A DNA stretch of 64,000 bases from NCBI GenBank assembly GCA_963753435.1, contig CAVWCF010000001.1:352001-416000 (forward strand). The letters are read 5' to 3'. The notes beneath the pieces are model-generated. The model had not been told where the DNA came from and did not search any database. It saw only the letters and a program-made list of their open reading frames with translations. Shown one piece after another: positions 23,824-39,365 of the stretch. A program made the position numbers and the translations under genes. How positions within the stretch are numbered: position 1 is the first letter of the stretch; each line of letters begins with the position of its first letter. The stretch is from an uncultured Actinomycetota bacterium (GTDB lineage Bacteria > Actinomycetota > Actinomycetes > CAVWCF01).

Positions 23824-24510
23824 TCAGCTGGCCGCGAGCGCGGCGTCGGCTTGGGCCTGGGTCATGTAGACCTGGGCGGTGATGGTCGCCTCGAGTTCTC
23901 CGGTGACGGAGTCCTCTTCGCTGGCCGGGACGATTGAGATCCCGGTGATGAGCATGGCGCGGGTCAGGTCCTCGGCCTTGTTTACGAACTGCTCAACGTC
24001 GAAGTAGGAGCCCGACACCAGCATCGTGAGCGGGATCGCCACCAACGCTTCGCCCGGTTCGGCGGTTGCCTCGGTACCGGTTGCGGTGGCCTCGGACGTC
24101 GAACTCTCAGTGGCCGCCCCCTCTTCGCCTTCGGTGGTGGTGGGTTCAGTTGCCACCGCCGCCTCCACGACTGCCGTTGGCTCCTCCCGGGTCAACGAGA
24201 CCAGCGTTACGCCGGACTTGCCGGCAACGTCGGTCAGGGACCGGATCAGCGCCGGCAATTGCGGGGCCTCCGGCACCTGGGTGCGGATCTCAGCCAGACG
24301 AGCCTGCTGAGTGGGCAGGTCGGCCGCCTGTGCCTCCAGCTGCTTGATCTTGACCTGCAGGGTGGCGTTCTGCTCCTGGGCGACTGTCGTCTGGTCCTTC
24401 AGGTCGGCGGCTTCGGTGCGCTTGGGGTTCACCAGTCCGAACCAGCCGGCGGCGAAGACCGCTGCGACCAGCAGGACGGCGATCAGCGTGTACTTGCGAG
24501 TGATGGTCAT
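23824..24510 (-). CDS. pilO: Type IV pilus assembly protein PilO
   Basis: N-terminal TM, coiled coil, P...LP.LI..L...A..SGV, VSGSYFDVEQFV..E...R; position after pilN. Confidence 0.85.
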   Translation of the reverse strand: MTITRKYTLIAVLLVAAVFAAGWFGLVNPKRTEAADLKDQTTVAQEQNATLQVKIKQLEAQAADLPTQQARLAEIRTQVPEAPQLPALIRSLTDVAGKSGVTLVSLTREEPTAVVEAAVATEPTTTEGEEGAATESSTSEATATGTEATAEPGEALVAIPLTMLVSGSYFDVEQFVNKAEDLTRAMLITGISIVPASEEDSVTGELEATITAQVYMTQAQADAALAAS

Positions 24511-24511
24511 G

Positions 24512-25246
24512 TCAGTTCCCACCCTGCTCGGTGTAGCGGCCGGAGTAGGCCTGGTCGGTGACCGTCACCGACGAAGTCGAACGGACGGCGGTCACACCGG
24601 TGCCTTCCACTTCTTCAGCGACCGAGGTGCTGAATTCAGGGTCGGCGTAGGCCGGCTGCTTGGTGAGGCTGTCCAGCCAGGTGGCCACGTCGTTGTGCTC
24701 CAGGGCGAAGCCCTCGAAGGTGACGGTGGCGATACCGGGGGCACCGAACGTGCCCGTGACCGGCGCCGTAGCCGGGTCCAGCGGAACGGTGCCCGGCTCG
24801 GGTGCTCCAGCCACCACCGGGGCGAACGGCTGGGCAATCACCAGGCTGTCCAACCAGACCCGATTCGGGATGGTCAGGCTCAGGTCGTTCAGCAGGAACG
24901 AGAACCGCACTTCCTGGCTCATGGCCTGGGTCAACTGCGTCTCGGCTGCAGCCACCTGGGCGTAAACCTTGGGTACCTCGGAGAACTCGGCGACGCGCGC
25001 CTGCAACGTGGCGGTCACCGCCTGCGCGGCGGCCAGGTCATCAGCTGCCTGGTTCGCCTGAGCCGCGGCACCGGTGTACAGCAAACCGACGCCTACGGCC
25101 GCGGCAATCCCGGCGCCGACCACGACCAGTCGAAGTTGGCGCTTGCGCGCCGCCTCGGCGATCTCGGGCGGTAGCAGGTTCACTCGCGGCATCGCCGCCA
25201 CCTGCGTGACCAGCGATGTGCTGGTCGCTTCCGTCATGACGCTCAT
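24512..25246 (-). CDS. pilN: Type IV pilus assembly protein PilN
   Basis: VNLLP PilM-binding motif, TM, coiled coil, L.DL...IP..VWL, G.A.....VA.W...L. Confidence 0.9.
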   Translation of the reverse strand: MSVMTEATSTSLVTQVAAMPRVNLLPPEIAEAARKRQLRLVVVGAGIAAAVGVGLLYTGAAAQANQAADDLAAAQAVTATLQARVAEFSEVPKVYAQVAAAETQLTQAMSQEVRFSFLLNDLSLTIPNRVWLDSLVIAQPFAPVVAGAPEPGTVPLDPATAPVTGTFGAPGIATVTFEGFALEHNDVATWLDSLTKQPAYADPEFSTSVAEEVEGTGVTAVRSTSSVTVTDQAYSGRYTEQGGN

Positions 25247-26304
25247 GCGGCGGCTCCCAAGGCCAGACCGACCGGCACGACGGCCAGCCGCTCGACGAAC
25301 TGGATCTGCTCCGGGGTGAGCCCGGTGTCGCCGACGCGAATCGCGGCGAACGGCGAACCCGTGTCGACCGGCAGGCGGCAGCTTTCGCTGAGTCGCTCAG
25401 CCAGGCCGGAGAGCCGGCTGCCGCCACCGGTGAAGGTGATGCGGGAGATCGGCGCACTCGGCCAGGAAGCGCTGAAGTAGTCCAGCGAACCGCGCACCTC
25501 GTCGACGAATGTGTTTGCGGCGGACTCCAGGACTCGGGCTGCCGCTTGCCGGTCCATGCCGGCCTCGGCGCCACCGGTGAGTCCGATCTGCTGCTTGATG
25601 GCTTCGGCCTGCTCGCGCGGAACACCCATGCGCTCCGCCACTGCTTCGGTGAGGTCGGAACCGCCCAGTAGCAGGATGCGAATGAACCGCGGCACGCCGT
25701 TCTCGTGAACCACGATGTTGGTTACGCGGGCACCGACGTCGACGAGAGCCTCGACCCGGCCGGACCCGGCTTCCATGCCGGCAAGGGACCGAAGGACCGC
25801 GAACGAGGACAGGTCCACCACGGTCGGCGTCAAGTCCGCGGCCTGCACGGCCTCGATCGAACGCGCAACCATGTCGCGGGAGGCGGCCACCAGCAGGCCC
25901 CGAACCAGTCGGGTCCCTTCGTTGGAGACCACGTCCTCAAGGGGCGTGAAGTCGAGCACTGCCTGATCGATGGGCATGGGCACGTAGTCGGCGACCTGGA
26001 ATCCCAGCGACGACTTCAGCTCATCCAGCGGCATCCACGGCAGATCGACCTGCCGAACGATCACCTTCTGGTTTGCCACCCCAAGGATCACCTTGCGGCT
26101 GGAGAACTTGGTTCCCTCCCACAGCTGCTTCAGTGCGGCGGCGACGGCGTTGGGGTCCATCACCTCGCCGTCGCGCACGGCTCCGTCGGGCAGGGCCACC
26201 TGGCCAAACTTCTCCAGGCTTACCTGTCCCTTGTTGAGCGCCAACTCGGCAGCTCGGACGCCGGAGGTGCCGATGTCCAGCCCGATGGCGGTTCGTCCTG
26301 CCAC
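25243..26304 (-). CDS. pilM: Type IV pilus assembly protein PilM (actin-like)
   Basis: IGLDIGTSGVRAAE, LVDVGA..T, EVRGSLDYF, FTGGGSRL.GL. Confidence 0.94.
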   Translation of the reverse strand: MAGRTAIGLDIGTSGVRAAELALNKGQVSLEKFGQVALPDGAVRDGEVMDPNAVAAALKQLWEGTKFSSRKVILGVANQKVIVRQVDLPWMPLDELKSSLGFQVADYVPMPIDQAVLDFTPLEDVVSNEGTRLVRGLLVAASRDMVARSIEAVQAADLTPTVVDLSSFAVLRSLAGMEAGSGRVEALVDVGARVTNIVVHENGVPRFIRILLLGGSDLTEAVAERMGVPREQAEAIKQQIGLTGGAEAGMDRQAAARVLESAANTFVDEVRGSLDYFSASWPSAPISRITFTGGGSRLSGLAERLSESCRLPVDTGSPFAAIRVGDTGLTPEQIQFVERLAVVPVGLALGAAA

Positions 26305-26366: not shown

Positions 26367-26395
26367 GTGTCGGCGTCACGAGGCCGTTCCTTGAG
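26367..26395 (-). promoter_or_regulatory. Sigma-28 (WhiG/FliA)-type promoter for pilM
   Basis: CTCAAG-N15-GCCGACAC. Confidence 0.75.
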
Positions 26396-26404
26396 CGCCG
26401 AACG

Positions 26405-27184
26405 TCAGCTGAGGAGGCCGCCGTACCAGTCCGCGATGGCCTGGCCGAAGAAGATGGCCAGAAATGCCCCGATGATCATGCTCGGGCCGAACGGGAGCAT
26501 GGTCTTGCGGCCGGCACCACGGAACAGGATCAGCGCGATGCCGAGCAGGCCACCCACGAGGAACCCGAGGAACCCGCCGATGATGAGGATTCCCCAACCG
26601 AGGTAGCCCAGGTACATGCCGAGAACGCCCGCCAGCTTCACGTCCCCGAAGCCCATTCCGGCCGGGTAGATGAGGGCCAGCAGGAAGTAGAACGCGAACA
26701 GGGCCAGGCCGCCGCCGGCGACGCGCAGGATTGTCTCCGCCTCCCCGTTGAGCAGCGCAGCCCCGGCCAGCAGGACGAAAGCCACGGGGTAGGACGGCAA
26801 CACGATGGCATTCGGTAGGCGGCGCGTGTCCAGATCGATGGCGGACAGCGCCACGCCGATGGCCGCCAGGTACAGGTAGGCCGGCAGCGCCCAGTCCCAG
26901 CCGAACCGCAGAGCCACAAGGCCGAACAGAACGGCCGTGCCCGCCTCGACCAGGGGGTAGCGAATGCTGATGGGCCGCGCACAATTTCGGCATTGCCCAC
27001 GCAACACCAGCCAGGAGATGACCGGGATGTTGTCGCGAGGAGCGATCTCCGTCCCGCAGCCCGGACACCGGGACCTCGGCCGAACAACCGACTCCCCCGC
27101 CGGTACTCGGTGGATGACAACGTTCAGGAACGAGCCGATCAGCAGCCCGATCACGACGCAGAACGTCACCAACACAGCGGTCAT
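26405..27184 (-). CDS. pilD: Prepilin peptidase/N-methyltransferase
   Basis: GSFLNVVIHRVP, CxxC pairs (CPGC, CRNC), RYPLVE, ID, GMGFGDVKL, PFGP. Confidence 0.96.
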   Translation of the reverse strand: MTAVLVTFCVVIGLLIGSFLNVVIHRVPAGESVVRPRSRCPGCGTEIAPRDNIPVISWLVLRGQCRNCARPISIRYPLVEAGTAVLFGLVALRFGWDWALPAYLYLAAIGVALSAIDLDTRRLPNAIVLPSYPVAFVLLAGAALLNGEAETILRVAGGGLALFAFYFLLALIYPAGMGFGDVKLAGVLGMYLGYLGWGILIIGGFLGFLVGGLLGIALILFRGAGRKTMLPFGPSMIIGAFLAIFFGQAIADWYGGLLS

Positions 27185-27243: not shown

Positions 27244-28640
27244 TCAGTTCGGGTTCAACTCCAACCACTGGGTTGTCCGAATGATCGACAGGAGGGGGAC
27301 TTCGACGTCCTCGTCGTAGTTGACGACTGCGTTCTTCACCTCGTTGCGGTCAGAGTCCGCCGGGCAACCCGAACTGGGAGCGTGGTTGCGGTCATTGGCG
27401 ATGACCGTGCCCGTGATGCCGTTCGAAGAGGTTTCCAGTTTGATCTGGTTGCCCGCGCCGAACAGCCCGATCCCACCTTCGAAGTTCGAAGTCACCTCGA
27501 GGTCGTCGTCGGCTACGAACACAACGCCCGGAAGGGCAGCGGCTTGGATACCGACCAGTTTGGCCGTGACCTTGCCGCCCTTCATGTAGCAACGGTCGGG
27601 GGGGCCGCCAGACGGTGCGCCTTCGGCGATCACCGTTGCCGCGGCCACGTTGGTGTTGCGGTCCAACTCCGCGTCGCCCTGGTACACGTAGTAGATGCCG
27701 CTACCCCAAGAGGTGGATCGCATCTCCCACAACGGTGCGGTCGTTCCGCTTCCAGGGGTGTACCCCCAGCCGCGGAACGTTCCACCGCCACTGACACGTT
27801 CCCGTTCAGGGCTGTGGCGCCGGTACATGGCGTGGCGGCGGGTTTCGCGCGATCCCGTCAGGACACAGGTCGTACCAACTGCCGTTGTAGCTGGTGGCGA
27901 AAGTCTCGTACATGAAACGCGGGTTGATCTCGGGCACGTACTCAAGTTGGTTGACTTGCCGCCGGAACCAGCGTCACCGACGGATCCGCAGACGCTGTAG
28001 GAGCCGACCGACGTCACGGTGCCGTTGACTGTCTGCGAGCAACCAGTACCGGCGGCTGAGCCGTTCGTGTGGACGTTGGCCTTGCCGCCAATCACTCCAG
28101 CGTCACATCCACGGTCACCGAGGACGAGAAGGCCAGGTCACCCGACGTCAGGATCGCGCTGCCCGGCTTGTACGGAGCGAAGAGGTACTCGGCCTTGAGC
28201 ATGCGGACATCGGAGTTGGCGGCCGCTCGGCTGGGGAACCACCCCATCGAGTACACACGTTGCGGTTGCGCCGGCCGGATCGATACGTAGTCACCGGACC
28301 AGTGCTCACCAGGTCGCCACCGTCGGCGGCCGCGAGCAGACTGTCACGAGCCCACGTGCGCTCATCCTCCTCGGACTGGCGGAGTGACTCCACGGCGCAT
28401 TCGGTCCGCACTGAAGGAGTTATCGGCCTGCAGTTCGGCCAGTGCGTCATCAATCCCTGCTTCGGCCGTCTGCAGCGATCTCCGACTTGAAGCGCGACAT
28501 GGCTGGCGCTGCTTCGGAGCGCACCGGTCGCGATCGCAACCATCACCGACATCAGACCGGTGGCTGCCACAGTGATCCAGAGCACGGTCAGCATGGCGAT
28601 ACCGCGATCTTCGACGGAGGCGGCGCTGCATCCGGGTCAT
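27244..28640 (-). CDS. PilX-like large minor pilin, multiply frameshifted
   Basis: Fragments reassemble to MTRMQRRL...RG|IAMLTVLWITVAATGL...A...AEAGIDDALAEL (PilX-type, no E5), followed by a beta-rich C-terminal domain ending WLELNPN. Confidence 0.65.
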
Positions 28641-28654
28641 GTGCTCTCCCAGGC

Positions 28655-29211
28655 TCAGGCGACGTCGTCGACGTTGCGAAGACGTTCGGCGAAATAGAGA
28701 TGCGAGTCGTGGTTGCCAGTGCCCGACGAACGCGTCGTAGTTCGAGTGCCGTCTCGACCAGACGGGTGTCCGGCGCCGGACGTCGTATGAGAACGCGATC
28801 TCGTTGACCAGGCTGCGCGCCTCAACGACTGTCGAAGTGCTTGAACCTTGCATACGCACCACGTCGAAGTGGTCCGGGATCCCCAGCGATCGCGCGTAGG
28901 CGCCCACTCCACCGACTCGTCGGCTTCGCGGCGATAGTTGGAGTTGTAGTCGATCCACAAGCACGAGCATGCTGGGGTGGCGCCGGCGTCGACGCCGCGG
29001 GCGTTGCGAATGTCCCGACCCAGCCGCTCCGACACCTTGCGGACGTCGGCCAGGCCGGTGGCCTCGTCATCGACCTGCGTCTTGGACCGCGCCATGACCG
29101 TGAAGGAAGTGACGGTTATGGCGCTGTGAAGGACAGCAGCAGCATCGTTACCATCAATTCGACGAGCGTGACACCTTCATCAGCACGCATTCGAGACAGC
29201 CGGGCAATCAT
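28655..29211 (-). CDS. PilW-like minor pilin, frameshifted
   Basis: Manual translation from ATG 29211: MIARLSRMRADEG|VTLVELMVTMLLL; continues in another frame ...ERLGRDIRNA...; ATGA overlap with the upstream gene. Confidence 0.7.
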
Positions 29212-30838
29212 TGCGGGATCACCAGCGAACTCGGCGCGGAAGCCCAGTCGTAGGCCACACGCACGGCGGTCGGCGCTCGCCCGGGAGGGTGGCGCGCATG
29301 ACCAAGTACTTGTTCTTGGTGACCGAGAAGTTGCTTGCGATCGTAACGGGACAATAAGGGCGCGAATGTGGAGTTGCAGTCATACAGCGTGGCGGTGCCA
29401 GTGCCTTCGCTGCCGAAGTGAGCCCAACGAGCGGAGTTCGCCGTGCCCGACGCCACATCGACAGTCAGTGCCCCCGCAGTCGGCATCAGGCAACCGATGT
29501 AGAGCGTCACGACCGCCGTACCCGCTGTGAAGTTCTCCTTGACAGGTGCCTGATAGCGCCAGTCGGCGACGCGGTCTCCGGTTGGTCTCCGTGGTCACGG
29601 CACCACCCTTGTTCAGGTAGCGCCCGTACGCGCCGGGCTTCCCCACCGAGTAGTCGTGGGCGGCGGCTTGGAGCGAACCGTTTGGTCCACGGTGGAGTGT
29701 TGCCCCGTTGTTCGCGTGGGAGCCCCCGGGCTGTTCGTGCAAGTAGTAGGTCGGGAAGGAGCAGGCCGGAACCACACTGCGCGGTGGGTAGCGGCCACGG
29801 ATCCTGCGTCTTGCCCGGTGCTACGGTCGAAGTCGGCGACGGCGACGGAGTTGGACTGACCGTACCGGTGGGTGTCGGCGACGGCAGCGGGCCCGATGCC
29901 GTAGACATGGTCAGCGACAGCGGCAGCGGCCGCGGCGCTTGCTGCGGCGGGCTGACGGCTGGACAACCTCCAGTCACCGTTCCACGTCCCGGTCGAGCTC
30001 GGTGCGGTCGCGACGCCAAGGAAGAAGTCGTCCGCATTGACTTCGACTGGGCCCGTGTCCACGCGTCCGTCGCCGTCGGTGTCGGTGAGCGCGATCATGT
30101 CCAGAGGCATCCTTAGCGCCGTCACCGTTGAGGTCCTGGTAGTAGGTAAAGGTCATCCCAAAGCCGGCCCATCGATGTTCCAGGCGTCGCGCGCTCCGTA
30201 GTTGTGGACTTTGAAGCCGTACACGACCTCGGTGCCCGGCCCCGCGTAATCGACGCGGACGATGTCGGCTCGAGAACGAGAACCGCGGCAACGGCAGGCC
30301 GCGACGAGTTTCGGTCACCAGCGTGGAGATCTGCTGGGTCTGTCGTCTGTCCGCCGCACGGACCACTCGACGACGATGGTGAGCTCGCCGGGTGTCAGTG
30401 GCGTAGCCAGCCGGTGATGTGACGTAGGTGGACATCGTGTACTCGGTGGCGTCGTGGTCTCCTGCGTGATGTGCGGGTTCAGCGGCTCGTCATACCGGTG
30501 GGCAGGATAGATCAGGGTTCCGGCCATCCCGGTGCCTGGATCGAAGGTGTTGCTGACGTTCGGCGATCTGAGGATCGTGCCGTCCGCGTCGGAGTGCGCC
30601 ATGTTGATGAAGACCAGCGCCCGCATCGTCTCGGTCGATTGAACGTCATGTCGACGGCCATCTGGTTCTGGCGGGCAGTCAGACCGCCCTTCAGCGCCAT
30701 CATCGTGGCGGCGGCCAGCGACATGAAGACGAACGCCGCGATCGAGAGTGCGATGACGGTCTCGATCAGCGTGAAGCCGGCAGTCGCGCGGCCGGAGATG
30801 CGGGACCGCAGACGATTGACGATTCGGGTCGCAGTCAC
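29208..30838 (-). CDS. Large modular minor pilin (PilV-like N-terminus plus putative adhesin domains), multiply frameshifted
   Basis: AAGGAG RBS, GTG 30838, G|FTLIETVIALSI; later fragments include DLNGDG, DTDGDG and a PT-rich linker, ending SSLVIPQ*. Confidence 0.65.
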
Positions 30839-31231
30839 GGGCACACTCCTTGTAGTGGACGGCCGGACAGCGAATCGAAGTACCAGGACTCGGCCTAGCA
30901 GCGCATGGTCGGCTTCGACGCAGTAGCCGGTGATGTCGGCGCGGCTGACGATCAACGTCACGTTCTCGGACCCGTTGCCGATCTCGCCTTGGATGTCCGC
31001 AAGCGTCATCCCGGTGAAGTCCCCTCGCTGCGCGACAGACCAGCTCTCTGCGCCGGTGGCGGCAGCCTTCAAGTCGTTCTGGAGTGCCGCGCGCCAGCCG
31101 TTCTCCCGCTGGTTCAGGAAGGCGGGGATCGCGATGGCCGCCAGGATCCCGATGATGATCATGACGACGAGGAGCTCGATGAGGGTGAACCCGCCATCGT
31201 CCCCGCCGGCGGGTGGCTGCAGCCGTCGCAT
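30835..31231 (-). CDS. pilA: Second type IV pilin, paralogue of the major pilin; one frameshift near 30892
   Basis: GG|FTLIELLVVMIIIGILAAIAIPAFLNQRENGW; the shifted frame gives ESWYFDSLSGRPLQGVCP*, matching the paralogue's ENWNYQSNVGTPQDGACP*. Confidence 0.85.
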
Positions 31232-31238
31232 GCCGCGT

Positions 31239-31268
31239 TCATCGGCACTAATACGCCCCGCACTTGAC
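31239..31268 (-). promoter_or_regulatory. Sigma-28-type promoter, probably leaderless, for the second pilin and minor pilins
   Basis: GTCAAG-N16-GCCGATGA, 7 nt before ATG 31231; no RBS. Confidence 0.65.
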
Positions 31269-31279
31269 TGCGACAAATG

Positions 31280-31313
31280 AGTGAGGGGCGACCCTTTCGG
31301 GCCGCCCCTCACT
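31280..31313 (-). terminator. Terminator after the major pilin
   Basis: Minus strand AGTGAGGGGCGGCCC-GAAA-GGGTCGCCCCTCACT. Confidence 0.82.
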
Positions 31314-31331: not shown

Positions 31332-31736
31332 TCACGGGCAAGCGCCGTCCTGCGGCGTACCCACGTTGCTCTGGTAGTTCCAGTTCTCGCCAGTCAACTG
31401 GGCGTGCGTGCCGCCGAGGCAGTACGAGTTGCCGTCAGCAGCCACCGTCACCGCGACGGTCACGTCAGCGGACTGGTTGAAGCCCTCGGCGGTCAGGTCG
31501 GCCGCCACCATGCCGGTGTAGGAACCGTCGTTCTGGGTCGCGAAGGACTCCGCGGCGACCGCGGCGTTCTTCAGGTCGGACTCGACCGTCGCACGCCAGC
31601 CGTTCTCCCGCTGACGCAGGAAGGTCGGGATGGCGATGGCGGCCAGAATGCCGATGATGATCATGACAACGAGCAGCTCGATCAGCGTGAAACCGCCGTC
31701 GCGCTCCTCCATGGACTTGCGAATCCGAGCGAGCAT
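31332..31736 (-). CDS. pilA: Major type IVa pilin
   Basis: Class III signal MLARIRKSMEERDGG|FTLIELLVVMIIIGILAAIAIP; C-terminal Cys pair; strong RBS GGGAGGGG; own promoter and terminator. Confidence 0.93.
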   Translation of the reverse strand: MLARIRKSMEERDGGFTLIELLVVMIIIGILAAIAIPTFLRQRENGWRATVESDLKNAAVAAESFATQNDGSYTGMVAADLTAEGFNQSADVTVAVTVAADGNSYCLGGTHAQLTGENWNYQSNVGTPQDGACP

Positions 31737-32017: not shown

Positions 32018-33241
32018 CTACTTGATCAGGTCGAAGATCTTGAAGATGGGCATGTACAGGGCGATGATCATTGCGCCGACGATGCCGCCCAGGACGGCGA
32101 TCATCAATGGCTCAATCAATGCCGTGAGCGATTCGGTGGTGGATTCGACCTCGTTGTCGTAGAAGACCGCGATCTTGTGGAGCATGTCATCGAGGGCGCC
32201 CGTGTCCTCTCCGACAGCCATCATCTGCACCACCATGGCGGGGAACACCGAGTGGTGAGCCAGCGGGCCGGCCAGTGATTCCCCGCGGCGGACCGAGTCC
32301 TGAACGTCGCGCACAGCGCGGCCGATCACGACGTTTCCGGTGGTGTCCGCCACGATCTCCAGGCTCTGCAGGATCGGGACGCCGGAGTGGATCATCGTGC
32401 CCAGGTTGCGGGCGAACCGGGCCAGCGCGATCTTCTGGAACAGGCCGCCGAACACCGGCAACTTCAGCTTCAGGGGGTCCACGACGTTGCGGACCTCGTC
32501 CCGGCGCTTGACCTTGCTCCAAACGACCAGACCCACGATCCCCAGCACGATCAGGATCGGGAAGGTGGTCTTGAGGACTCCGGAAAGGAAGACCAGAACC
32601 TTCGTGGGGGCCGGCAACTCCCCGCCGAGACTCTCAAAGAGGCCGGCGAAAGTGGGGACGATGAAGAGCAGCATGCCGATGACAGCCAGAATCGCCACCA
32701 CGAAGACGACAACCGGGTAGGTCATCGCCGCCTTGACCTTGCCACGCAGCCGGACCTCGGCCTCGAAGTTGTCTGCGATCTGCATCAGGACGCTGTCGAG
32801 GAAGCCCCCGACCTCCCCGGCCTTGGTCATGTTGACCATCAGCGGTGGGAAGACAGTGGGGTGCTTGGCCATGGAGGCCGATAGCGACTGCCCTGTCTCG
32901 ACATCGGCCCGGACCTCGCTGACGACCTCGGCCAGCTTCTTGTTCTCCGTCTGCTCCGACAGGATCGTCAGCGCCCGTAGCAGCGACAAGCCGGAGTTGA
33001 TCATCGTCGCGAACTGGCGACTGAAGACCGCGAGGTCCTTCAGCTTGACCCGGCCGCTGAAACCGGGAATCGACAGATCCCGGTTCATCCCGGCCTTTGC
33101 CTCGTTGATGGCAACCGGCGCATAGCCCATGCTGCGCAACTTCGAGGCGACCGCGGTCGGCGAGTCGGCTTCGATCTGACCGGTGACGATCTTGCCCGCC
33201 CGGTCACGAACGGAGTACGAATAGGTGGCGGTGGCTGCCAT
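32018..33241 (-). CDS. pilC: Type IV pilus platform protein PilC
   Basis: FSRQFATMINSGL, GE.GG.LD, AMTYP, GEDTGALD.ML, LIEP, ALYMPIF; start ATG 33241. Confidence 0.95.
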   Translation of the reverse strand: MAATATYSYSVRDRAGKIVTGQIEADSPTAVASKLRSMGYAPVAINEAKAGMNRDLSIPGFSGRVKLKDLAVFSRQFATMINSGLSLLRALTILSEQTENKKLAEVVSEVRADVETGQSLSASMAKHPTVFPPLMVNMTKAGEVGGFLDSVLMQIADNFEAEVRLRGKVKAAMTYPVVVFVVAILAVIGMLLFIVPTFAGLFESLGGELPAPTKVLVFLSGVLKTTFPILIVLGIVGLVVWSKVKRRDEVRNVVDPLKLKLPVFGGLFQKIALARFARNLGTMIHSGVPILQSLEIVADTTGNVVIGRAVRDVQDSVRRGESLAGPLAHHSVFPAMVVQMMAVGEDTGALDDMLHKIAVFYDNEVESTTESLTALIEPLMIAVLGGIVGAMIIALYMPIFKIFDLIK

Positions 33242-33252
33242 GACAGTTCCCC

Positions 33253-34887
33253 TCAGCCTCGACCGGCAAGCCGGTTGAAGTCCTCGATGTGGTGGCACTT
33301 CTCCACACCGTGCTCGTAGGTGATGCGACCCTGCTTGACCAGATCCGCTAGGTGCTGGTCCATGGTCTGCATTCCGTGCTGACCACCGGCCTGCATTGCC
33401 GAGTAGATCTGGTGCGTCTTGCCTTCACGGATCAGGTTGCGGATCGCCGGCGTGATGGTGAGTACCTCTGCGGCCACGACGCGTCCCAGTCCATCGGTGG
33501 TCTTGCACAGCGTCTGGCAGACGATTCCTTGCAGCGCGCTGGCCAATTGGACTCGGATCTGCTGCTGCTGGTGCGCCGGGAAGACGTCGATCACACGGTC
33601 GATCGTCTGCGCAGCGTCCTGGGTGTGCAGCGTCGCGAAGACCAGGTGGCCGGTTTCGGCGGCGGTCAATGCGACGCTGATGGTCTCCAGGTCGCGCATC
33701 TCGCCGACCAGGATGATGTCCGGGTCCTGCCGCAGGACATGCTTGAGGGCCTGGGTGAACGACCTCGTGTCCTCGCCGACCTCGCGCTGGTTCACCAGGC
33801 AGGAACGGTGCCGGTGCAGGAACTCGATCGGGTCCTCGACGGTCATGATGTGGTCTTTGCGCGTGCGGTTGGCCAGGTCGACCAAGGACGCCAGCGTCGT
33901 CGACTTGCCGGATCCGGTGGGTCCGGTCACTAGGACGAATCCTCGCGGCATACCCGCGAAGTTCGAGACCGTCGTCGGGACGCCTAGGTCCTCAAGCTTC
34001 TTGATCTCATACGGGATCAGCCGGAAGGCGGCCCCGATGGCGTCGCGCTGGCGGTACATGTTCACGCGGAAGCGCGCCTTGCCGGGCACCGAGTAGGCGA
34101 AGTCGAGTTCGAGTTCCTCTTCGAAACGCTCGCGCTGCTTCTGGGTGATAGCCGCGTACATGATCCGTTGGATCATGGGCGGCGCCAGGTCGGGGTACTC
34201 GGACAGCGGACGCAGTTCGCCGTGCTGGCGAATTGTGGGGCGGGCCCCCGTCGTCAGGTGCAGGTCGGAAGCGCCCGTCTCCAAGACCCGAGCGAGCAAG
34301 GCGTCCAACACGATGTCGTCGGGGTTGATGGTCTGCTCGGTCGAGCCCCGGGTGTATGCGGCCTCGTCGGCAGTGCTGTCCGCGACGACCGGAACCGAAT
34401 CACGAGACTCATCCGACTGGTTGCTGGAACTGGAAGTCCGGGAAGGCCGGGGGTACTTCATCCGACCTCGCCGAGCCGCCGAGACGCTCTGCCAGCGGCA
34501 CCAATTCCGGGTCGGCGGCAAACACCGACTCAGTGGGCGGGTCGAACCGCGTCAAGAGGTCTTCATCGGCATCCGGGGTCTCCGGCGGAGCCAGTGGTAC
34601 GGAGGCAACCGGACGTTGTCTCGGCCAGCGGCGACGTCTCGACGCAAAGGCGTCTGCGCCGTGAAGGCCGCGGTCTGCTGCTCAGCTTGCCGCAGCTCGT
34701 CTTGCTGCGGCTCGGAACCGGGCAACGGCGCTGCCACGGGAACGGCGCTGGGCGAACTGGCGAAGAAGTCGAAGACCGGTGGCCCCGAAGACTCCGGCGC
34801 CGGCGGTTCCGGCTGGAACTCGTCGGGCTGCAGTTCCTCCGGCCGCGGCGCTGGCTGGAACCCGCCAGTGAACGGTGTGCTCTCCAC
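33253..34887 (-). CDS. pilT: Retraction ATPase PilT with a long acidic/Pro-rich N-terminal extension (frameshifted around 34420-34650)
   Basis: GASDLHL, RFRVN, GPTGSGKSTTLA, TVEDPIE, LRQDPD.ILVGEMRD, TGHLVFATLHT, AIRNLIREGK; RBS GAGGGG before GTG 34887. Confidence 0.9.
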
Positions 34888-34935: not shown

Positions 34936-34964
34936 TCATCGGCGTGGATATGGTCGGGCTTGAG
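34936..34964 (-). promoter_or_regulatory. Sigma-28-type promoter for pilT-pilC
   Basis: CTCAAG-N15-GCCGATGA, starting just after the pilB stop. Confidence 0.8.
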
Positions 34965-34966
34965 TC

Positions 34967-36631
34967 TCAGGCCACTACGCGGAAGATCTCGGCCAAGCTG
35001 GTGGTCCCGTCGAGCACCTTGGCCAACCCGTCGGATCGCAGCGATTCCATGCCTTCGCCCGCGGCCAGCTCCGCGATCGCAGTTGAGGACGCCCGTTCCA
35101 CCGCGAGGCGTTCCACACCCTCGCTAACGGTCATCACCTCGTGCAGGGCCAGTCGCCCTCGGTAGCCGGTCTGGCTGCATTGGGAGCAGCCCGCGGCTTG
35201 GTACAACGTCGGCAGCGGGTCGCCCTCCGACCACGGGAACCGGGCCTCGCGTAGAGCGTCAGGCGTGGGCGTGTACTGCTCTTTGCACTTGCTACAGAGT
35301 CGGCGCGCCAGGCGCTGTGCCAGTACGCATTCCATCGCCGACCCGACCAGGAAGGGCTCGATGCCCATTTCGGTCAATCGGGTGACAGCACTTGGGGCGT
35401 CATTGGTGTGCAAGGTCGCCAGCACCAGGTGACCGGTGAGCGCGGCCTCGATAGCGATCTGGGCCGTCTCGTGGTCCCGGATCTCACCGATCAGGACGAT
35501 GTCCGGGTCCGAACGCAGGATCGACCGCAGCGCCGACGCGAAAGTAAGGCCGGCCTTGTTGTTGACCTGAACCTGGTTCACGCCCGCGAGTCGGTATTCG
35601 ACCGGATCCTCAACGGTGATGACGTTCACATCGGGACGGTTGAGGATGTTCAGCGTGCTGTAGAGGGTGGTGGACTTACCTGAGCCGGTGGGGCCGGTAA
35701 CCAACAACATCCCGTAGGGCTTCGTGAACGACTGGCTCCAGCGGTCGTAGTTGCCCTGCCGGAAACCCAGATCGGCCAGGTCCAGACTTGCCGTGGAGTT
35801 GTCCAGGACACGCATGACCACCTTTTCGCCCCACACGGTCGGCAGCGTGGCCACGCGCAGGTCGATCTTCTTGCCATGCACCTGGACGGACAACCGCCCG
35901 TCCTGTGGGATGCGGCGCTCTGCGATGTCCATGTCGGCCATGATCTTCAAGCGGCTGATCACCGCCGATTGAATGGACTTGGGGCTCTTCATCACCTCGT
36001 GCAGCACCCCGTCGATGCGGTACCGGACCTTGAGTTCACGCTCGGCCGGCTCCAAGTGGATGTCCGACGCCCGGTCCTGGATCCCCTGCATGATGAGGAC
36101 GTTCACGTACTTGACGATCGGTGCGTCGTCGACGGCCTGGGTCAGACCCGAAAGTTCGTCGTCTTCGTCCTCCGCCTCCATCGCGGCGGCGAGGTTGTCG
36201 AGGTCCCCGTCGGCACGGTGGTAGCGGTCAATCGCGGCCAGCGTGTCCGCCAGAGTGGCGACCACCGGCCGTACATCCCGTCCCGACATTGACCGAACGT
36301 CATCGATCGCGACGACATTTGCCGGGTCCGCCATCGCCAGCAGCAACCGGCCGTCCTCGAAACCGATCGGCAGCACGGTGTGGCGGCGACAGACCGCCGC
36401 CGGAACCATTCCCACAGCTGCCCCGTCGACTGCATGTTCGCTTAGGTCGACGAAGGGAAGTCCGATCTGGGCGGCAAGAGCCTGAACCAACTGGGTCTCG
36501 TTGACGAAACCCTTGTCCACGAGGACGCGACCAAGGCTGCGGCCCAGACGCCGCTGGTCGTCCAACGCCGCGGTCAACTGCTCTTGCGTGACCAGACCGT
36601 TGGCGAGCAGAACGTCACCAAGTTGCCGCAC
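34967..36631 (-). CDS. pilB: Extension ATPase PilB with an N-terminal MshEN-like domain
   Basis: ASDIHLEP, PQDGR, GPTGSGKSTTLY, TVEDPVEY, LR.DPD, CxxC...CxxC zinc motif, GYRGR. Confidence 0.95.
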   Translation of the reverse strand: MRQLGDVLLANGLVTQEQLTAALDDQRRLGRSLGRVLVDKGFVNETQLVQALAAQIGLPFVDLSEHAVDGAAVGMVPAAVCRRHTVLPIGFEDGRLLLAMADPANVVAIDDVRSMSGRDVRPVVATLADTLAAIDRYHRADGDLDNLAAAMEAEDEDDELSGLTQAVDDAPIVKYVNVLIMQGIQDRASDIHLEPAERELKVRYRIDGVLHEVMKSPKSIQSAVISRLKIMADMDIAERRIPQDGRLSVQVHGKKIDLRVATLPTVWGEKVVMRVLDNSTASLDLADLGFRQGNYDRWSQSFTKPYGMLLVTGPTGSGKSTTLYSTLNILNRPDVNVITVEDPVEYRLAGVNQVQVNNKAGLTFASALRSILRSDPDIVLIGEIRDHETAQIAIEAALTGHLVLATLHTNDAPSAVTRLTEMGIEPFLVGSAMECVLAQRLARRLCSKCKEQYTPTPDALREARFPWSEGDPLPTLYQAAGCSQCSQTGYRGRLALHEVMTVSEGVERLAVERASSTAIAELAAGEGMESLRSDGLAKVLDGTTSLAEIFRVVA

Positions 36632-36652
36632 AGTACGCCTCCCCTGGACCGA

Positions 36653-36841
36653 TCAGAGCCGGTCTTGGGGAGCATCGGCAGTATCCGCCGACGCTTGAGA
36701 CACATCGATGCGAGCGCACAACAGGTTGGCCGCAGCCAGCATCGCGCGTCCGCGGGGGTCACTGCCGGGCACGCCGACAACGTCGCCGCTGCGCAGGATC
36801 ACGCCTGCGGCGCAGGGGCGCTCGTTCTCGTCCTCCTCCAC
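36653..36841 (-). CDS. Possible small hypothetical protein (62 aa)
   Basis: GTG 1 nt after the GTPase stop; first ~40 codons mostly end in G/C; 3' end overlaps the pilB promoter. Confidence 0.35.
   Translation of the reverse strand: MEEDENERPCAAGVILRSGDVVGVPGSDPRGRAMLAAANLLCARIDVSQASADTADAPQDRL
36672..36699 (-). promoter_or_regulatory. Sigma-28-type promoter for pilB
   Basis: CTCAAG-N14-GCCGATGC. Confidence 0.8.
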
Positions 36842-36842
36842 C

Positions 36843-37412
36843 TCAACTCACCGCCTGGAAGTCGAGGCGGTCCAGCACCGTGTACAGGAGTTCGAGAAGT
36901 ACGCCCTTGACCGATTCCCGGTCCGTGGCCACACAACCGATCACCGGTGCCCAGTCATCGGAGCCGACCTGCTCTCGCACCCAAGCGACCTGCTCGTCGC
37001 TGAGTTCGGCGTGACGATTCACGGCAACGACATACGGAGCCGAAGTAAGTCCCCGGAACGCCTGCAGGATGCCGGCTGCTTCAGCCATCGAATCCGGTCG
37101 GTTCGGGTCGACGAGCAGCACGTAGCCAACCGTGCCCGTGCTCACGACATCCCACATGAAGTCGAAACGCTCCTGACCCGGCGTCCCGAACAAGTAGAGG
37201 ACCAGGTCTCGGTCGATGCTGATCCGCCCGAAATCCATGGCGACCGTGGTCTCGCGCTTGGTGGACCGCGTCTCGTCGGTAACCTCCCGCTCCGTCGACA
37301 GGACGGTGATCTCGCTGATCGTCCGGATCAGCGTCGTCTTGCCAGCCGCAAACGGGCCCGTGATCACGATCTTGACCGCCTGACCGGCGTTACCCCGACC
37401 CCGGCCGGCCAT
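36843..37412 (-). CDS. Small Ras-like GTPase (MglA/CvnD family)
   Basis: KIVITGPFAAGKTT, TTVAMDFG, LYLFGTPGQERFDFMWD, VVAVNR. Confidence 0.92.
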   Translation of the reverse strand: MAGRGRGNAGQAVKIVITGPFAAGKTTLIRTISEITVLSTEREVTDETRSTKRETTVAMDFGRISIDRDLVLYLFGTPGQERFDFMWDVVSTGTVGYVLLVDPNRPDSMAEAAGILQAFRGLTSAPYVVAVNRHAELSDEQVAWVREQVGSDDWAPVIGCVATDRESVKGVLLELLYTVLDRLDFQAVS

Positions 37413-38509
37413 CAGATGTCCTTCACGCCGGCGATCAGGCGCAGCATCAGGCTGCGATTCAGCCCCGGTTCACCGCCGTCGGTTCCAGTCGCCGCTAGCA
37501 ACTCGGCTTCAGCTGGGGGGGCGTCGACGTCTTGCTCCGGGCCCACCGGGTCCGACCCGGGTTCGACTTCCGGCGGTGTGACCGGGTCGAAGTTGACTGG
37601 TTCTCCGGACGCCGTGGCCGGATGTAGCGGCAACTCCACCTCGATCAGGGAATCGTCGGCCGACGGCGCCTGCTCGACGAGGTCCGACGGCTGCGCCGGC
37701 TCGGTTGGCGGCGTCACCACCACGGGGGCATTCCCCGCTGTCGCCGAATCGCCCTCGACCGGCCCGAGGAGCGCATGCCGACGACGCACCGAGGTCACGT
37801 GGTCGCCGCGGCGGTCGCGAACCATAAGCAGGCCACGGTCGAAGAGATTCGCCAGGGTGGTGACGACGGCGAAACGGCCACAACCGGTTAGATCCACCAA
37901 GTCGGCCAGCGTCCGCTCACCGTCAATGAGAGCCAGCAGTGCCCACTCGTCCCGAGTCGCCGTCGGGTCCTGAGGCAGCACCACGGGCATGGTCAGGACG
38001 ACGTCGGCGTCGAGCAGGTCCGCCGGCACCGACGACCAGGTCTCACCGCGGGCGCCCGCCTCAGTGATCAGCCGATCCGCGGCCAGCTCCACTCCGACGT
38101 CGTCGGGGTTGGTTGTGTCGACGTGGAACGAGAAGTCCCCGTCTGGCCACTGCATCAGTTCGAACACTGCGTCGACGGACTGCTCGGTAGCGGCGGCCAC
38201 AACCAGCTCACGATCGACCTGTCCGCTGAGGATGAGCAACGCACCCAGGCCGTCGGCAACACCCTCGGTCAGTTCCTTGACGGCAACCGTGATCGCGTCG
38301 TCGTCGACCGCGCCACTGCCGATCAATCGCCTAGCCAAGGACTGTCGGCCCAGATCGGCTGTCGCCCCGGTGATCTGTCCGTCGCGGAAGTAGACCGCAC
38401 CGGACCCGGCCGAACCACGCAACAGCAACGCGCCGGTCTTGCGCGTCGAACTGAGCAACCCGAACACGTCGGGGAGGCTGAAGGCGCCGAGTGAACCTTC
38501 CAATCGCAT
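37412..38509 (-). CDS. DUF4388 (PATAN-like) domain protein with winged-HTH
   Basis: LEGSL..FSLPDVF.LL....KTG.L...G.VYFRDG.I; F.LMQW.DG.F.F; EW.LLALIDGERTLADL...L.DRGLL. Confidence 0.85.
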   Translation of the reverse strand: MRLEGSLGAFSLPDVFGLLSSTRKTGALLLRGSAGSGAVYFRDGQITGATADLGRQSLARRLIGSGAVDDDAITVAVKELTEGVADGLGALLILSGQVDRELVVAAATEQSVDAVFELMQWPDGDFSFHVDTTNPDDVGVELAADRLITEAGARGETWSSVPADLLDADVVLTMPVVLPQDPTATRDEWALLALIDGERTLADLVDLTGCGRFAVVTTLANLFDRGLLMVRDRRGDHVTSVRRRHALLGPVEGDSATAGNAPVVVTPPTEPAQPSDLVEQAPSADDSLIEVELPLHPATASGEPVNFDPVTPPEVEPGSDPVGPEQDVDAPPAEAELLAATGTDGGEPGLNRSLMLRLIAGVKDI

Positions 38510-38529
38510 TCAGTTCACCCCCCGATCGA

Positions 38530-39285
38530 TCACTGCCAGCCGTTGCTGCTGCGTGCGGACGAAGGTGCCCAAACCACATTCGGTGTGGAGACGTCTTCGT
38601 CAGCAGCGGCCGCGAGCACGGTCGGCGGAGCAGCTGGAGGGACCAGGTCGGATGGGTTGCGCTGGGAAATCACCAACGGCGGTGCCGATGTGACCGGCTC
38701 CTCCTTGTCTTCCCCTGCGTCGCCGTCCCCCGCGCCTTCTTCGGCATTGGTTGCGGCCGGAGCCTCGGCAGCCGCCGTGGGCTCGATCTCCGTGCCTACG
38801 GCAGCTGCCGTCTCGGGCTCGGTAATCGACACATCCAGAGCCGGCTCCGGAGGCGCGACAGCCGACACCCGAGCGGGCGGCACCTCAGGCACCGCGGGGC
38901 CACCGAGAGCGGCGGCCACGTCCCTTGCGGCGCGTTTGACCTCGAAGAGCATCAACCCGGCCTTGGCCGCGCGATCGGCGACGGCGACCAGGACCGCTTC
39001 GTCATCCGCGGACACGAGGAAGACGGTTCCGTCGTCACCCTCCACGTACACCTGCTGCAGGCCGCCACGGCCGAGTCCGTCAGCGGCGCGCTCACCGAGC
39101 GAAAGCAAAGCGGCGCTCATTGCGGCCACGCGATCCTCATCCATCCCCTCGGGCAGCGCCGATGCCATGGGAAGCCCGTCGAAGGAAACGACGGCCGCCG
39201 CCTCCAGTTGCGGGGCCCGGCGAAGCAGGTCCGTGAGGACGCGGTCCAAGGCGGCCTCAACGCCGCGTGCCGGAAGATCGCTCAT
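38530..39285 (-). CDS. Roadblock/LC7 protein (MglB-like) with a long disordered C-terminal tail
   Basis: AAAVVSFDGLPMASALP...DRVAAMSAALLSLGERA...LGRGGLQQVYVEG..G; RBS GAGGAG before ATG 39285. Confidence 0.9.
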   Translation of the reverse strand: MSDLPARGVEAALDRVLTDLLRRAPQLEAAAVVSFDGLPMASALPEGMDEDRVAAMSAALLSLGERAADGLGRGGLQQVYVEGDDGTVFLVSADDEAVLVAVADRAAKAGLMLFEVKRAARDVAAALGGPAVPEVPPARVSAVAPPEPALDVSITEPETAAAVGTEIEPTAAAEAPAATNAEEGAGDGDAGEDKEEPVTSAPPLVISQRNPSDLVPPAAPPTVLAAAADEDVSTPNVVWAPSSARSSNGWQ

Positions 39286-39336
39286 CCAAGTTCTCCTCGC
39301 GCATGGCAGCGCCGACACCCGGCGCACTTGAGTTCT

Positions 39337-39365
39337 CACTCGGCGCATCCGGCCAACTTCTTGAG
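39337..39365 (-). promoter_or_regulatory. Sigma-28-type promoter for the roadblock-DUF4388-GTPase operon
   Basis: CTCAAG-N15-GCCGAGTG. Confidence 0.72.

Follow-up and report, generated by a model that had tools for sequence, protein, structure and literature searches.

At the head of a type IV pilus locus in the window analyzed here (64,000 nucleotides of contig CAVWCF010000001.1 from an uncultured Actinomycetota bacterium), three coupled genes encode a Roadblock/LC7 protein, a DUF4388 (PATAN) protein, and a small GTPase. We favor, with somewhat better than even confidence in the adaptor model as a whole, the view that this trio, inherited along with the pilus genes, acts on the pilus motor as a nucleotide switch. 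It would likely set the time or place of pilus assembly. The genes, their order, their constant place before pilB, a promoter-like motif common to trio and pilus genes, and co-loss are all directly visible in the loci compared. Because the trios almost always adjoin pil genes and have this motif in common with them, the interpretation that fits best is a switch linked to pili.

The genes lie on the minus strand in the order aroE, Roadblock, DUF4388, small GTPase, and then pilB. The Roadblock protein (38530 to 39285; 251 residues; MglB/CvnB-like) matches Robl_LC7 in Pfam over residues 16 to 102 (E = 6e-19) and ends in a long, acidic Pro/Ala tail; by analogy with MglB and MfpD, it is a probable GTPase-activating protein (GAP). 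The DUF4388 protein (37412 to 38509; 365 residues) matches its family over residues 4 to 158 (E = 1e-21), and the GTPase (36843 to 37412; 189 residues) matches ATP_bind_1 (E = 5e-18). The Roadblock and DUF4388 genes are separated by 20 bp, the DUF4388 and GTPase genes overlap in a TGATG, and 211 bp separate the GTPase gene from pilB; all three genes are intact and coupled. Short-read contigs of run X1, which may be the source sample of the assembly, cover 35975 to 38206 and 38208 to 39349 without gaps. Metatranscriptome runs X10 and X14 gave short contigs on the trio (150 to 290 bases, shares 0.08 to 0.11), from which no expression is inferred. The genome contains one Robl_LC7 gene, one small GTPase gene over the cutoff, and two DUF4388 genes. 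The gene upstream of Roadblock is aroE rather than a kinase, as in most relatives, and a search of the whole genome (2.17 Mb, 98% complete) for DUF742 (PF05331) gave no match. A first-pass annotation of this DNA had described a tightly coupled trio directly before pilB and lacking a CvnA kinase, and coordinates, gaps, Pfam matches, and the upstream gene agree with that description.

Linkage to pilus genes extends far beyond this genome. Among 300 genomes drawn evenly across the phylum, 47 carry a GTPase orthologue (cut at 131 bits, chosen after the scores were seen); 46 of the 47 are pil-linked, 35 by listed coordinates to pilT and 11 more by fetched DNA, and one lies at a contig edge. This draw includes the unpublished genomes G001 and G048, without which 44 of 45 are linked. 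A class draw, also of 300 genomes (including the unpublished carrier G324 and the unpublished G327 and G332, with pilT and no GTPase gene), yielded 100 with an orthologue, 89 of them beside pilB/pilT and none seen unlinked. Here pilT lies at most 20 kb downstream on the same strand in 78 genomes (median, 3.8 kb), 11 more have pilB downstream, and another 11 end 0 to 7.5 kb past the gene. Orthologous trios mostly unlinked to pil genes, which the first-pass annotation had named as the outcome that would count against it, are therefore the opposite of what both draws contain. In G413 and G429, pilT-pilC is displaced by about 180 to 190 kb, and the trio remained with pilB. Similarly, the best 80 of 558 confirmed relatives comprise 58 loci labeled Actinomycetota and 22 labeled Chloroflexota; in 48 of the actinomycetotal loci pilB/pilT lies downstream, 3 have pilB as immediate upstream neighbor and then end, 6 stop within 1 kb, and 1 has 10 kb of polysaccharide genes.

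Named carriers include Actinomycetes, Nitriliruptorales, Coriobacteriia, and Geothermincolaceae, always within an alaS-ruvX-mltG-aroE backbone, and the protein distances of all block genes co-vary (Spearman 0.64 to 0.86 over 41 loci). The carrier range, constant backbone, and co-varying distances point to vertical inheritance from an early ancestor. Further, the fetched loci form a decay series, hand-picked from lists and thus showing kinds rather than frequencies. It runs from the full trio through PATAN plus GTPase (L113, L141) or Roadblock plus PATAN (L105) to PATAN as the only remaining trio gene before pilB (L097-L104, L106, L107, L118, L154), and finally to pil loci without any trio gene (L124, L150, L151, L153, L159, L160). 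In 13 fetched loci lacking the GTPase gene (L097-L107, L118, L154), PATAN stands directly before pilB. Lineages would thus drop GTPase and Roadblock first, retain PATAN before pilB for a while, and often end without all three.

The trio and the pilus genes also have a promoter motif in common. The first-pass annotation had reported one motif before Roadblock, pilB, pilT, and pilM, and we recover it on the minus strand at 39340 to 39365 (CTCAAG-N15-GCCGA, 80 bp from the Roadblock start), 36674 to 36699 (pilB), 34939 to 34964 (pilT, the top-scoring site of the genome), and 26370 to 26395 (pilM). The relaxed pattern TCAAG-N14-16-[GC]CCGA has five sites in the window, all on the minus strand and all within the pilus locus, including one before the second pilin gene (31243 to 31267). 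The locus motif TCAAG-N15-GCCGA fits both WhiG consensus sequences given in PMC12871210, TCAA-N16-GCCGA and CTCA-N17-GCCGA, and that paper and PMC8325347 describe WhiG as the known or predicted driver of pil clusters in Rubrobacter and Actinoplanes. Indeed, WhiG/sigma28-type sites (T(A/C)AA-N16-GCCGA or CTCA-N16-17-GCCGA) lie here within 200 bp of gene starts, and the genome encodes WhiG (411 bits; cutoff, 343) as well as RsiG and four GGDEF proteins; a flagellin search of the genome gave no match.

Among the trio loci, a few of which occur twice in these counts, the motif lies upstream of Roadblock in 55 of 87, of pilA in 17 of 36, and of pilB in 12 of 77. Control genes carry it in 0/42 (alaS), 0/66 (ruvX), 0/74 (mltG), and 2/79 (aroE) cases, and the GTPase gene does so in 0/94. 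The spacer sequence is not conserved, as expected for a two-box promoter. Spacing is not sharp within this genome (9 sites at N15, 12 at N6, 9 at N18), and 4 of 13 genome sites fall inside 13 kb, a region picked after the motif was seen; the weight of the motif therefore rests on clustering and on conservation in relatives, not on spacing in this genome. A genome-wide matrix scan gave 111 sites over threshold, many of them intragenic, and placed the Roadblock site of the window below threshold, so no regulon is claimed. The second DUF4388 gene of the genome (G000:C1:1602230-1605735; L084) encodes 934 residues with a long, coiled-coil-like Ala/Glu-rich region; it and rsiG are transcribed divergently, and a WhiG-type motif immediately precedes its start.

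The middle protein offers a candidate link between GTPase and motor. Its predicted layout is a PATAN domain with an MshEN-like helical insert, an extended winged helix at about residues 160 to 233, an acidic linker, and a terminal helix, NRSLMLRLIAGVKDI. The DUF4388 match reaches 77 bits (cutoff, 25) and is of the PatA type, with the helical insert; no receiver-domain (REC) match is found at the C terminus of the protein, where a winged helix stands in its place. Residues 1 to 235 are modeled at a pLDDT of 92.6, and the winged helix, which the first-pass annotation had proposed, is supported both by the model (163 to 235) and by MarR_2 matches in 16 of 24 homologues. The insert aligns with the MshEN repeats of PilB/PilF at a root mean square deviation of 1.8 to 1.9 over 49 to 54 columns, with weak E values of 1.1 to 1.4; its RLG...Q pattern is kept in deep-branching classes and degenerate in Actinomycetes. 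For the PATAN core, a wide structural search gave no match, the winged helix having taken up the list.

Several comparisons relate the C-terminal half to CvnC. The terminal helix, LLxRLIxGVxxL after an acidic linker, is present in all intact orthologues and likewise in conservon CvnC proteins, and with a CvnC-derived profile the end of the window protein ranks 5 of 11,827 open reading frame (ORF) ends. This helix occurs in 124 of 128 DUF4388 genes with the GTPase gene behind them and in 2 of 15 without; these 15 loci stem from about eight families, and kin are not independent. Both exceptions belong to one genus, which has conservon-type GTPases elsewhere. A CvnC model shows the same succession of elements as the DUF4388 winged-helix module, and the two models (DUF4388 160 to 233 and CvnC 16 to 88) align to the same residue ranges of 8adl_S (233 to 308 and 235 to 308, respectively). 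Other top structures common to both are 8jj9_B, 3k9t_A, and GATOR1 chains of 8fw5 (Z 7 to 9), compared with Z of about 6.5 to 7 for ordinary regulators, and unrelated models reach nearly these values. The best matches of both models are winged helices of GATOR1/SEA subunits and FAM91A1 (Z 8 to 9), a likeness that we treat as a weak, model-based lead to a common Roadblock-GTPase regulator module; Foldseek returned no match at E ≤ 0.001 with either model. A profile comparison of the DUF4388 C-terminal half with CvnC gave a probability of 74% (E = 3e-5), and PF05331 matches 1 of 24 homologous C-terminal halves (E = 6e-4). Taken with the models, these sequence signals suggest that the C-terminal module is likely homologous to CvnC. 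The first-pass annotation, which had DUF4388 taking the CvnC position, was right about the position; rather than a mere substitute, the protein seems to be a CvnC-like module fused to PATAN.

The GTPase itself carries the motifs GPFAAGKT (G1), ETTVAMDF (G2), and GTPGQ (G3) and a degenerate G4, NRHA; the G2 threonine is invariant in 50 rows, as is GTPGQ. The treatment of Group 1 MglA (Myxococcus/Thermus) in PMC4316618 gives an arginine finger next to the G2 threonine and TVPGQ. A Myxococcus-type MglA is ruled out here by the missing arginine finger and by GTPGQ in place of TVPGQ, and alignment with Thermus MglA scores no more than 29 bits. Quick trees (113 and 44 rows) unite the conservon GTPases in one clade (SH-aLRT 100) with the window protein outside; it groups with pilus-linked actinomycete GTPases, next to PATAN-linked ones from Chloroflexota (support 80 to 86). 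Deeper branches lack resolution, the Deinococcus references sit on a long branch, and Acel_1323 is not among the rows. Under approximately unbiased (AU) tests, placement as sister to CvnD (p = 0.47) and a common origin of all pilus-linked GTPases (p = 0.62) both went unrejected. The conservon GTPase signatures GGFGVGKT and NxFD are absent from the window protein. A conservon remnant is likewise ruled out, with no kinase, no DUF742, and a GTPase outside the CvnD clade. The GTPase that the first-pass annotation labeled MglA/CvnD-like is thus neither a Myxococcus MglA nor a CvnD, and the polarity role that it drew by analogy from Myxococcus and Thermus is not transferable to a GTPase without arginine finger and TVPGQ.

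The trio is instead a known architecture, the Group 5 MglB>PATAN>MglA neighborhood. Table S2 of Wuichet and Sogaard-Andersen 2015 (PMC4316618) lists Acel_1323 of Acidothermus cellulolyticus, of 193 residues, in Group 5 with the order MglB>PATAN>MglA, an order that it also gives for Aquificae. In an Acidothermus sp. locus (L008), the trio is present with a GTPase of 193 residues, and pilB-pilT-pilC lies behind it. The window GTPase has Thr for the Arg finger and GTPGQ, both common to Groups 2 to 5, within this neighborhood, and the Asp-Gly pair of Group 5 coupled MglB is seen as VSFDGLP in the window Roadblock protein and in the orthologues shown. The Group 5 description of G4, [NT]KxD, does not hold for it, and the Acidothermus sp. 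orthologue deviates too; we therefore file the GTPase as a Group 5-like variant. The degenerate G4 (NRHA) also places its guanine specificity in doubt.

These elements suggest the following model, whose binding and catalytic steps are all drawn by analogy from relatives. WhiG, freed from RsiG at low c-di-GMP, would drive transcription of the trio along with that of the pil operons. The dimer of Roadblock would act as GAP for the GTPase, and the middle protein would be a two-sided adaptor between the GTPase and PilB/PilC. Its CvnC-like C-terminal half, made up of the winged helix and the terminal helix, would bind the GTPase, probably as an exchange factor; MfpC, a mycobacterial CvnC, is described in PMC11343762 as binding its GTPase and speeding nucleotide exchange, i.e., as an exchange factor for guanine nucleotides (GEF). 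Its PATAN half would bind the N-terminal domain of PilB and/or PilC, as reported for a Synechocystis PATAN domain with PilB1-NTD and PilC-NTD in a preprint (10.1101/2021.06.11.447907). The nucleotide state of the GTPase would then gate or position pilus extension. Three predictions of a complex between PilB 1 to 270 and DUF4388 1 to 235 scored 0.00, 0.34, and 0.00 against a mark of 0.32.

Several results weigh against a switch wired to pili in this way. None of the 22 Chloroflexota loci, 16 of which leave at least 5 kb to inspect, has pilB/pilT downstream. Trios on Deinococcus/Thermus plasmids lie near c-di-GMP enzymes and are not pilus-linked. In L116 and L117, DUF4388 sits between aroE and pilD, and pilB/T/C is gone from the locus. 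Over the 41 loci, the distances of the GTPase follow those of mltG (Spearman 0.80) no less closely than those of pilB (0.64); given this and the conserved backbone, linkage is partly shared descent. The GTPase is absent from 46 of 131 pilT-bearing class genomes, and in the phylum draw, PilT-like genes (230 of 300 genomes) far outnumber the GTPase (47), so pili do not need it. G4 reads [NT]KxD in only 4 of 39 actinomycetotal rows versus 11 of 11 from Chloroflexota. For the adaptor, a compact-alignment profile comparison with CvnC reached only 41%, and in a CvnC HMM search the DUF4388 protein was not above background. The dedicated pilus switch of the first-pass annotation therefore survives as a pilus-linked one, supported by linkage and motif, and gives way in one respect: the module is accessory, and many pilus loci lack it.

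One alternative places the trio in the same WhiG/c-di-GMP surface program as the pili with another target, for example c-di-GMP enzymes, pilin glycosylation, or the synthesis of surface glycans. On the Thermus brockianus plasmid pTB1 (L187), DUF4388-GTPase-protoglobin-Roadblock stands amid EAL, GGDEF, and HD-GYP genes and appears to be the same switch in a c-di-GMP/oxygen context. In L021, L028, L030, L045, and L023, the stretch from GTPase to pilB holds inserted O-antigen-ligase (Wzy_C) or flippase/glycosyltransferase genes, which possibly serve pilin glycosylation. The RLG...Q pattern of deep-branching PATAN inserts is MshEN-like, and the second DUF4388 gene, which lies opposite rsiG, also has the WhiG-type motif. 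However, such glycan genes occur sporadically (of 78 GTPase-pilT distances, 62 stay below 6 kb), PATAN persists before pilB once the GTPase is lost, and the insert pattern is degenerate in the window protein. We consider this explanation unlikely.

Inertia is a further alternative, under which an old general signaling trio is carried along in the alaS-aroE-pil-aroC backbone with no functional tie to pili. Co-divergence of all block genes, the DUF4388 genes left without pilB/T/C in L116 and L117, and clean trio loss in many pil loci such as L124 and L150 (with L151, L153, L159, and L160) count in its favor. Against this, the trio stands at an intact backbone without pil genes in 0 of 147 orthologue-bearing genomes (12 uninformative), and a separate copy of the promoter motif of the pil genes precedes it, which the backbone genes lack. 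Further, the trio stays beside pilB where aroE moved (L049, L056, L062, L063) and where a second pilB inserted upstream (L057, L070, L072). We hold inertia to be distinctly improbable. Very improbable, finally, is that the winged helix binds DNA and that the trio regulates pil transcription as conservons alter expression: MarR_2 matches in 16 of 24 homologues and the altered transcription of conservon mutants described in PMC13343842 speak for it, but the winged helix has a net charge of -2, its protein-scaffold matches (GATOR1/SEA, FAM91A1; Z 8.4 to 9.1) outrank DNA-binding regulators (Z about 6.5), and a sigma-factor motif already explains the conserved upstream sequence.

Behind the trio follow pilB, pilT, pilC, pilins, pilD, pilM, pilN, and pilO, and then aroC; PilB, PilT, PilC, pilin, PilD, and PilM/N/O in one locus make this a type IVa-like pilus. 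The extension ATPase PilB (34967 to 36631, minus strand, as for all genes here) matches T2SSE and MshEN, scores 659 bits against TIGR02538, slightly below the cutoff of 675.65, and has a c-di-GMP-binding MshEN motif at its N terminus (NF053729, 66.7 bits; cutoff, 38). The retraction ATPase PilT (33253 to 34887; TIGR01420, 488 bits; cutoff, 319) is extended at its N terminus by a long, acidic, Pro-rich stretch. Against a short-read contig, three single-base gaps appear in the 5' part of pilT; the frameshifts are probably assembly errors and pilT intact. The platform protein PilC (32018 to 33241; T2SSF) and a major pilin candidate, PilA (31332 to 31736; N_methyl), follow, and more pilin genes run on to about 27244 with apparent frameshifts. 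The minor pilin region (27244 to 31312) likewise shows several single-base gaps against a short-read contig, and its frameshifts are probably assembly errors. The prepilin peptidase PilD (26405 to 27184) matches A24_N_bact and Peptidase_A24, and pilM, pilN, and pilO occupy 23824 to 26304 (TIGR01175 over cutoff; PilN and PilO matches).

Further variation surrounds these genes. A second PilT-like ATPase, 47% identical, is encoded outside the pil locus (G000:C1:885031-886038). The acidic Pro-rich PilT extension recurs in relatives (L105, L113, L114, L060, L089); some lineages have a stretch like the PilB N terminus just ahead of the PilT core, and PilT of L099-L104 has a short winged-helix-like match in the same position. 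The trio sits between two pilB paralogues in L057, L065, L068, L070-L072, L077, L086, L087, and L108, and in L110 (G092) pilB is preceded by two back-to-back trios, of which one is divergent. In L049, L056, L062, and L063, the trio follows two or three tandem Roadblock genes, the PATAN protein exceeds 1000 residues, and the block of ORFs ahead of the trio contains what we take to resemble hydrogenase and ferredoxin genes. A small fourth gene lies directly 3' of the GTPase gene in 58 of 117 loci (e.g., L005, L030, L070, L161); its product, a possible membrane tether, has a basic or transmembrane N terminus and continues through a Pro-rich linker to a hairpin-helix motif that is conserved at the C terminus. 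In the window, a 62-residue ORF at 36653 to 36841 (minus strand; no Pfam match) is a possible remnant of it, with likeness by eye and a score of only 3 bits; membership in that family is not claimed.

A pilus output would matter in several ways. Group 5 MglA would gain a concrete, testable output, and pilus placement and timing are little studied in monoderm bacteria. The module, found in 100 of 300 sampled Actinomycetes genomes and across several classes, joins three literatures: conservon G proteins, with CvnC as GEF; cyanobacterial PATAN output on PilB; and the control of pili by WhiG and c-di-GMP. For tests in culture, Acidothermus is available, pilus linkage having been seen in the Acidothermus sp. 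assembly (L008). We also put forward, as doubtful, a wider scenario: early Actinomycetota had a G-protein switch wired to the pilus motor by a fusion of a CvnC-like exchange factor with a PilB-binding PATAN domain, under WhiG/c-di-GMP control; the kinase-linked conservons of Streptomyces and Mycobacterium descend from it by loss of PATAN and gain of CvnA; and the winged-helix module is a bacterial cousin of the GATOR1/SEA winged helices. The latter also serve Roadblock-associated GTPases. If true, such an early wired switch would give monoderm actinobacteria polarized, steerable twitching.

Among known systems, the trio and each of its parts are already catalogued, so this is not a new kind of system; the pilus tie is what appears undescribed. 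Part of the first-pass claim of novelty falls with Table S2 of PMC4316618, which tabulated the kinase-less trio in 2015; the part concerning a pilus locus stands, in that open-access full text (PMC12871210 without its supplements) gave no description of the trio at an actinomycetotal pilus locus. The account of Group 5 MglA in PMC4316618 gives no known function, and its main text mentions pili twice, for Myxococcus and Bdellovibrio only. The words "GTPase" and "roadblock" do not occur in the main texts of PMC8325347 and PMC12871210, and PMC3244431, on Gram-positive pili, mentions neither Acidothermus nor GTPase. The 2021 preprint cited above notes that PATAN genes have MglA/MglB genes nearby and raises the question of a conserved pilus role for PATAN (10.1101/2021.06.11.447907), so that a link of PATAN, MglA, and pili had already been proposed in a general way.

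The nearest relative is Group 5 MglA (Acel_1323, Aquificae, Chloroflexi, Deinococcus), listed in PMC4316618 with the same three genes in the same order; there and in the window GTPase, the G2 Thr replaces the Arg finger and G3 is GTPGQ. Here, by comparison, a WhiG-type motif heads the trio, whose place before pilB is constant, and the reported Group 5 consensus is gone from G4. Conservons and related systems (CvnA-B-C-D; MfpE-D-C-B, Group 2) also have the order Roadblock, winged-helix protein, GTPase, with a terminal helix and a predicted extended winged-helix fold that the window protein appears to have in common with CvnC, and with similar G2/G3 motifs; the window differs in having no CvnA kinase, no stand-alone DUF742, and PATAN fused in front. 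Myxococcus xanthus and Thermus thermophilus MglA/MglB likewise pair a small GTPase with a Roadblock partner and affect type IV pili (PMC11580455, PMC12024867), but their genes lie outside the pil locus and they act through RomR/RomX/SgmX. In Rubrobacter and Actinoplanes (PMC8325347, PMC12871210), the pil clusters under WhiG control have the same consensus at several points, together with WhiG, RsiG, and c-di-GMP enzymes. Finally, the PatA-type regulators of cyanobacteria (PixE, PixG, LsiR) have, like the window protein, a PATAN domain with helical insert and a candidate output to PilB/PilC, whereas their input is a receiver domain and that of the window protein would be a CvnC-like module beside a GTPase.

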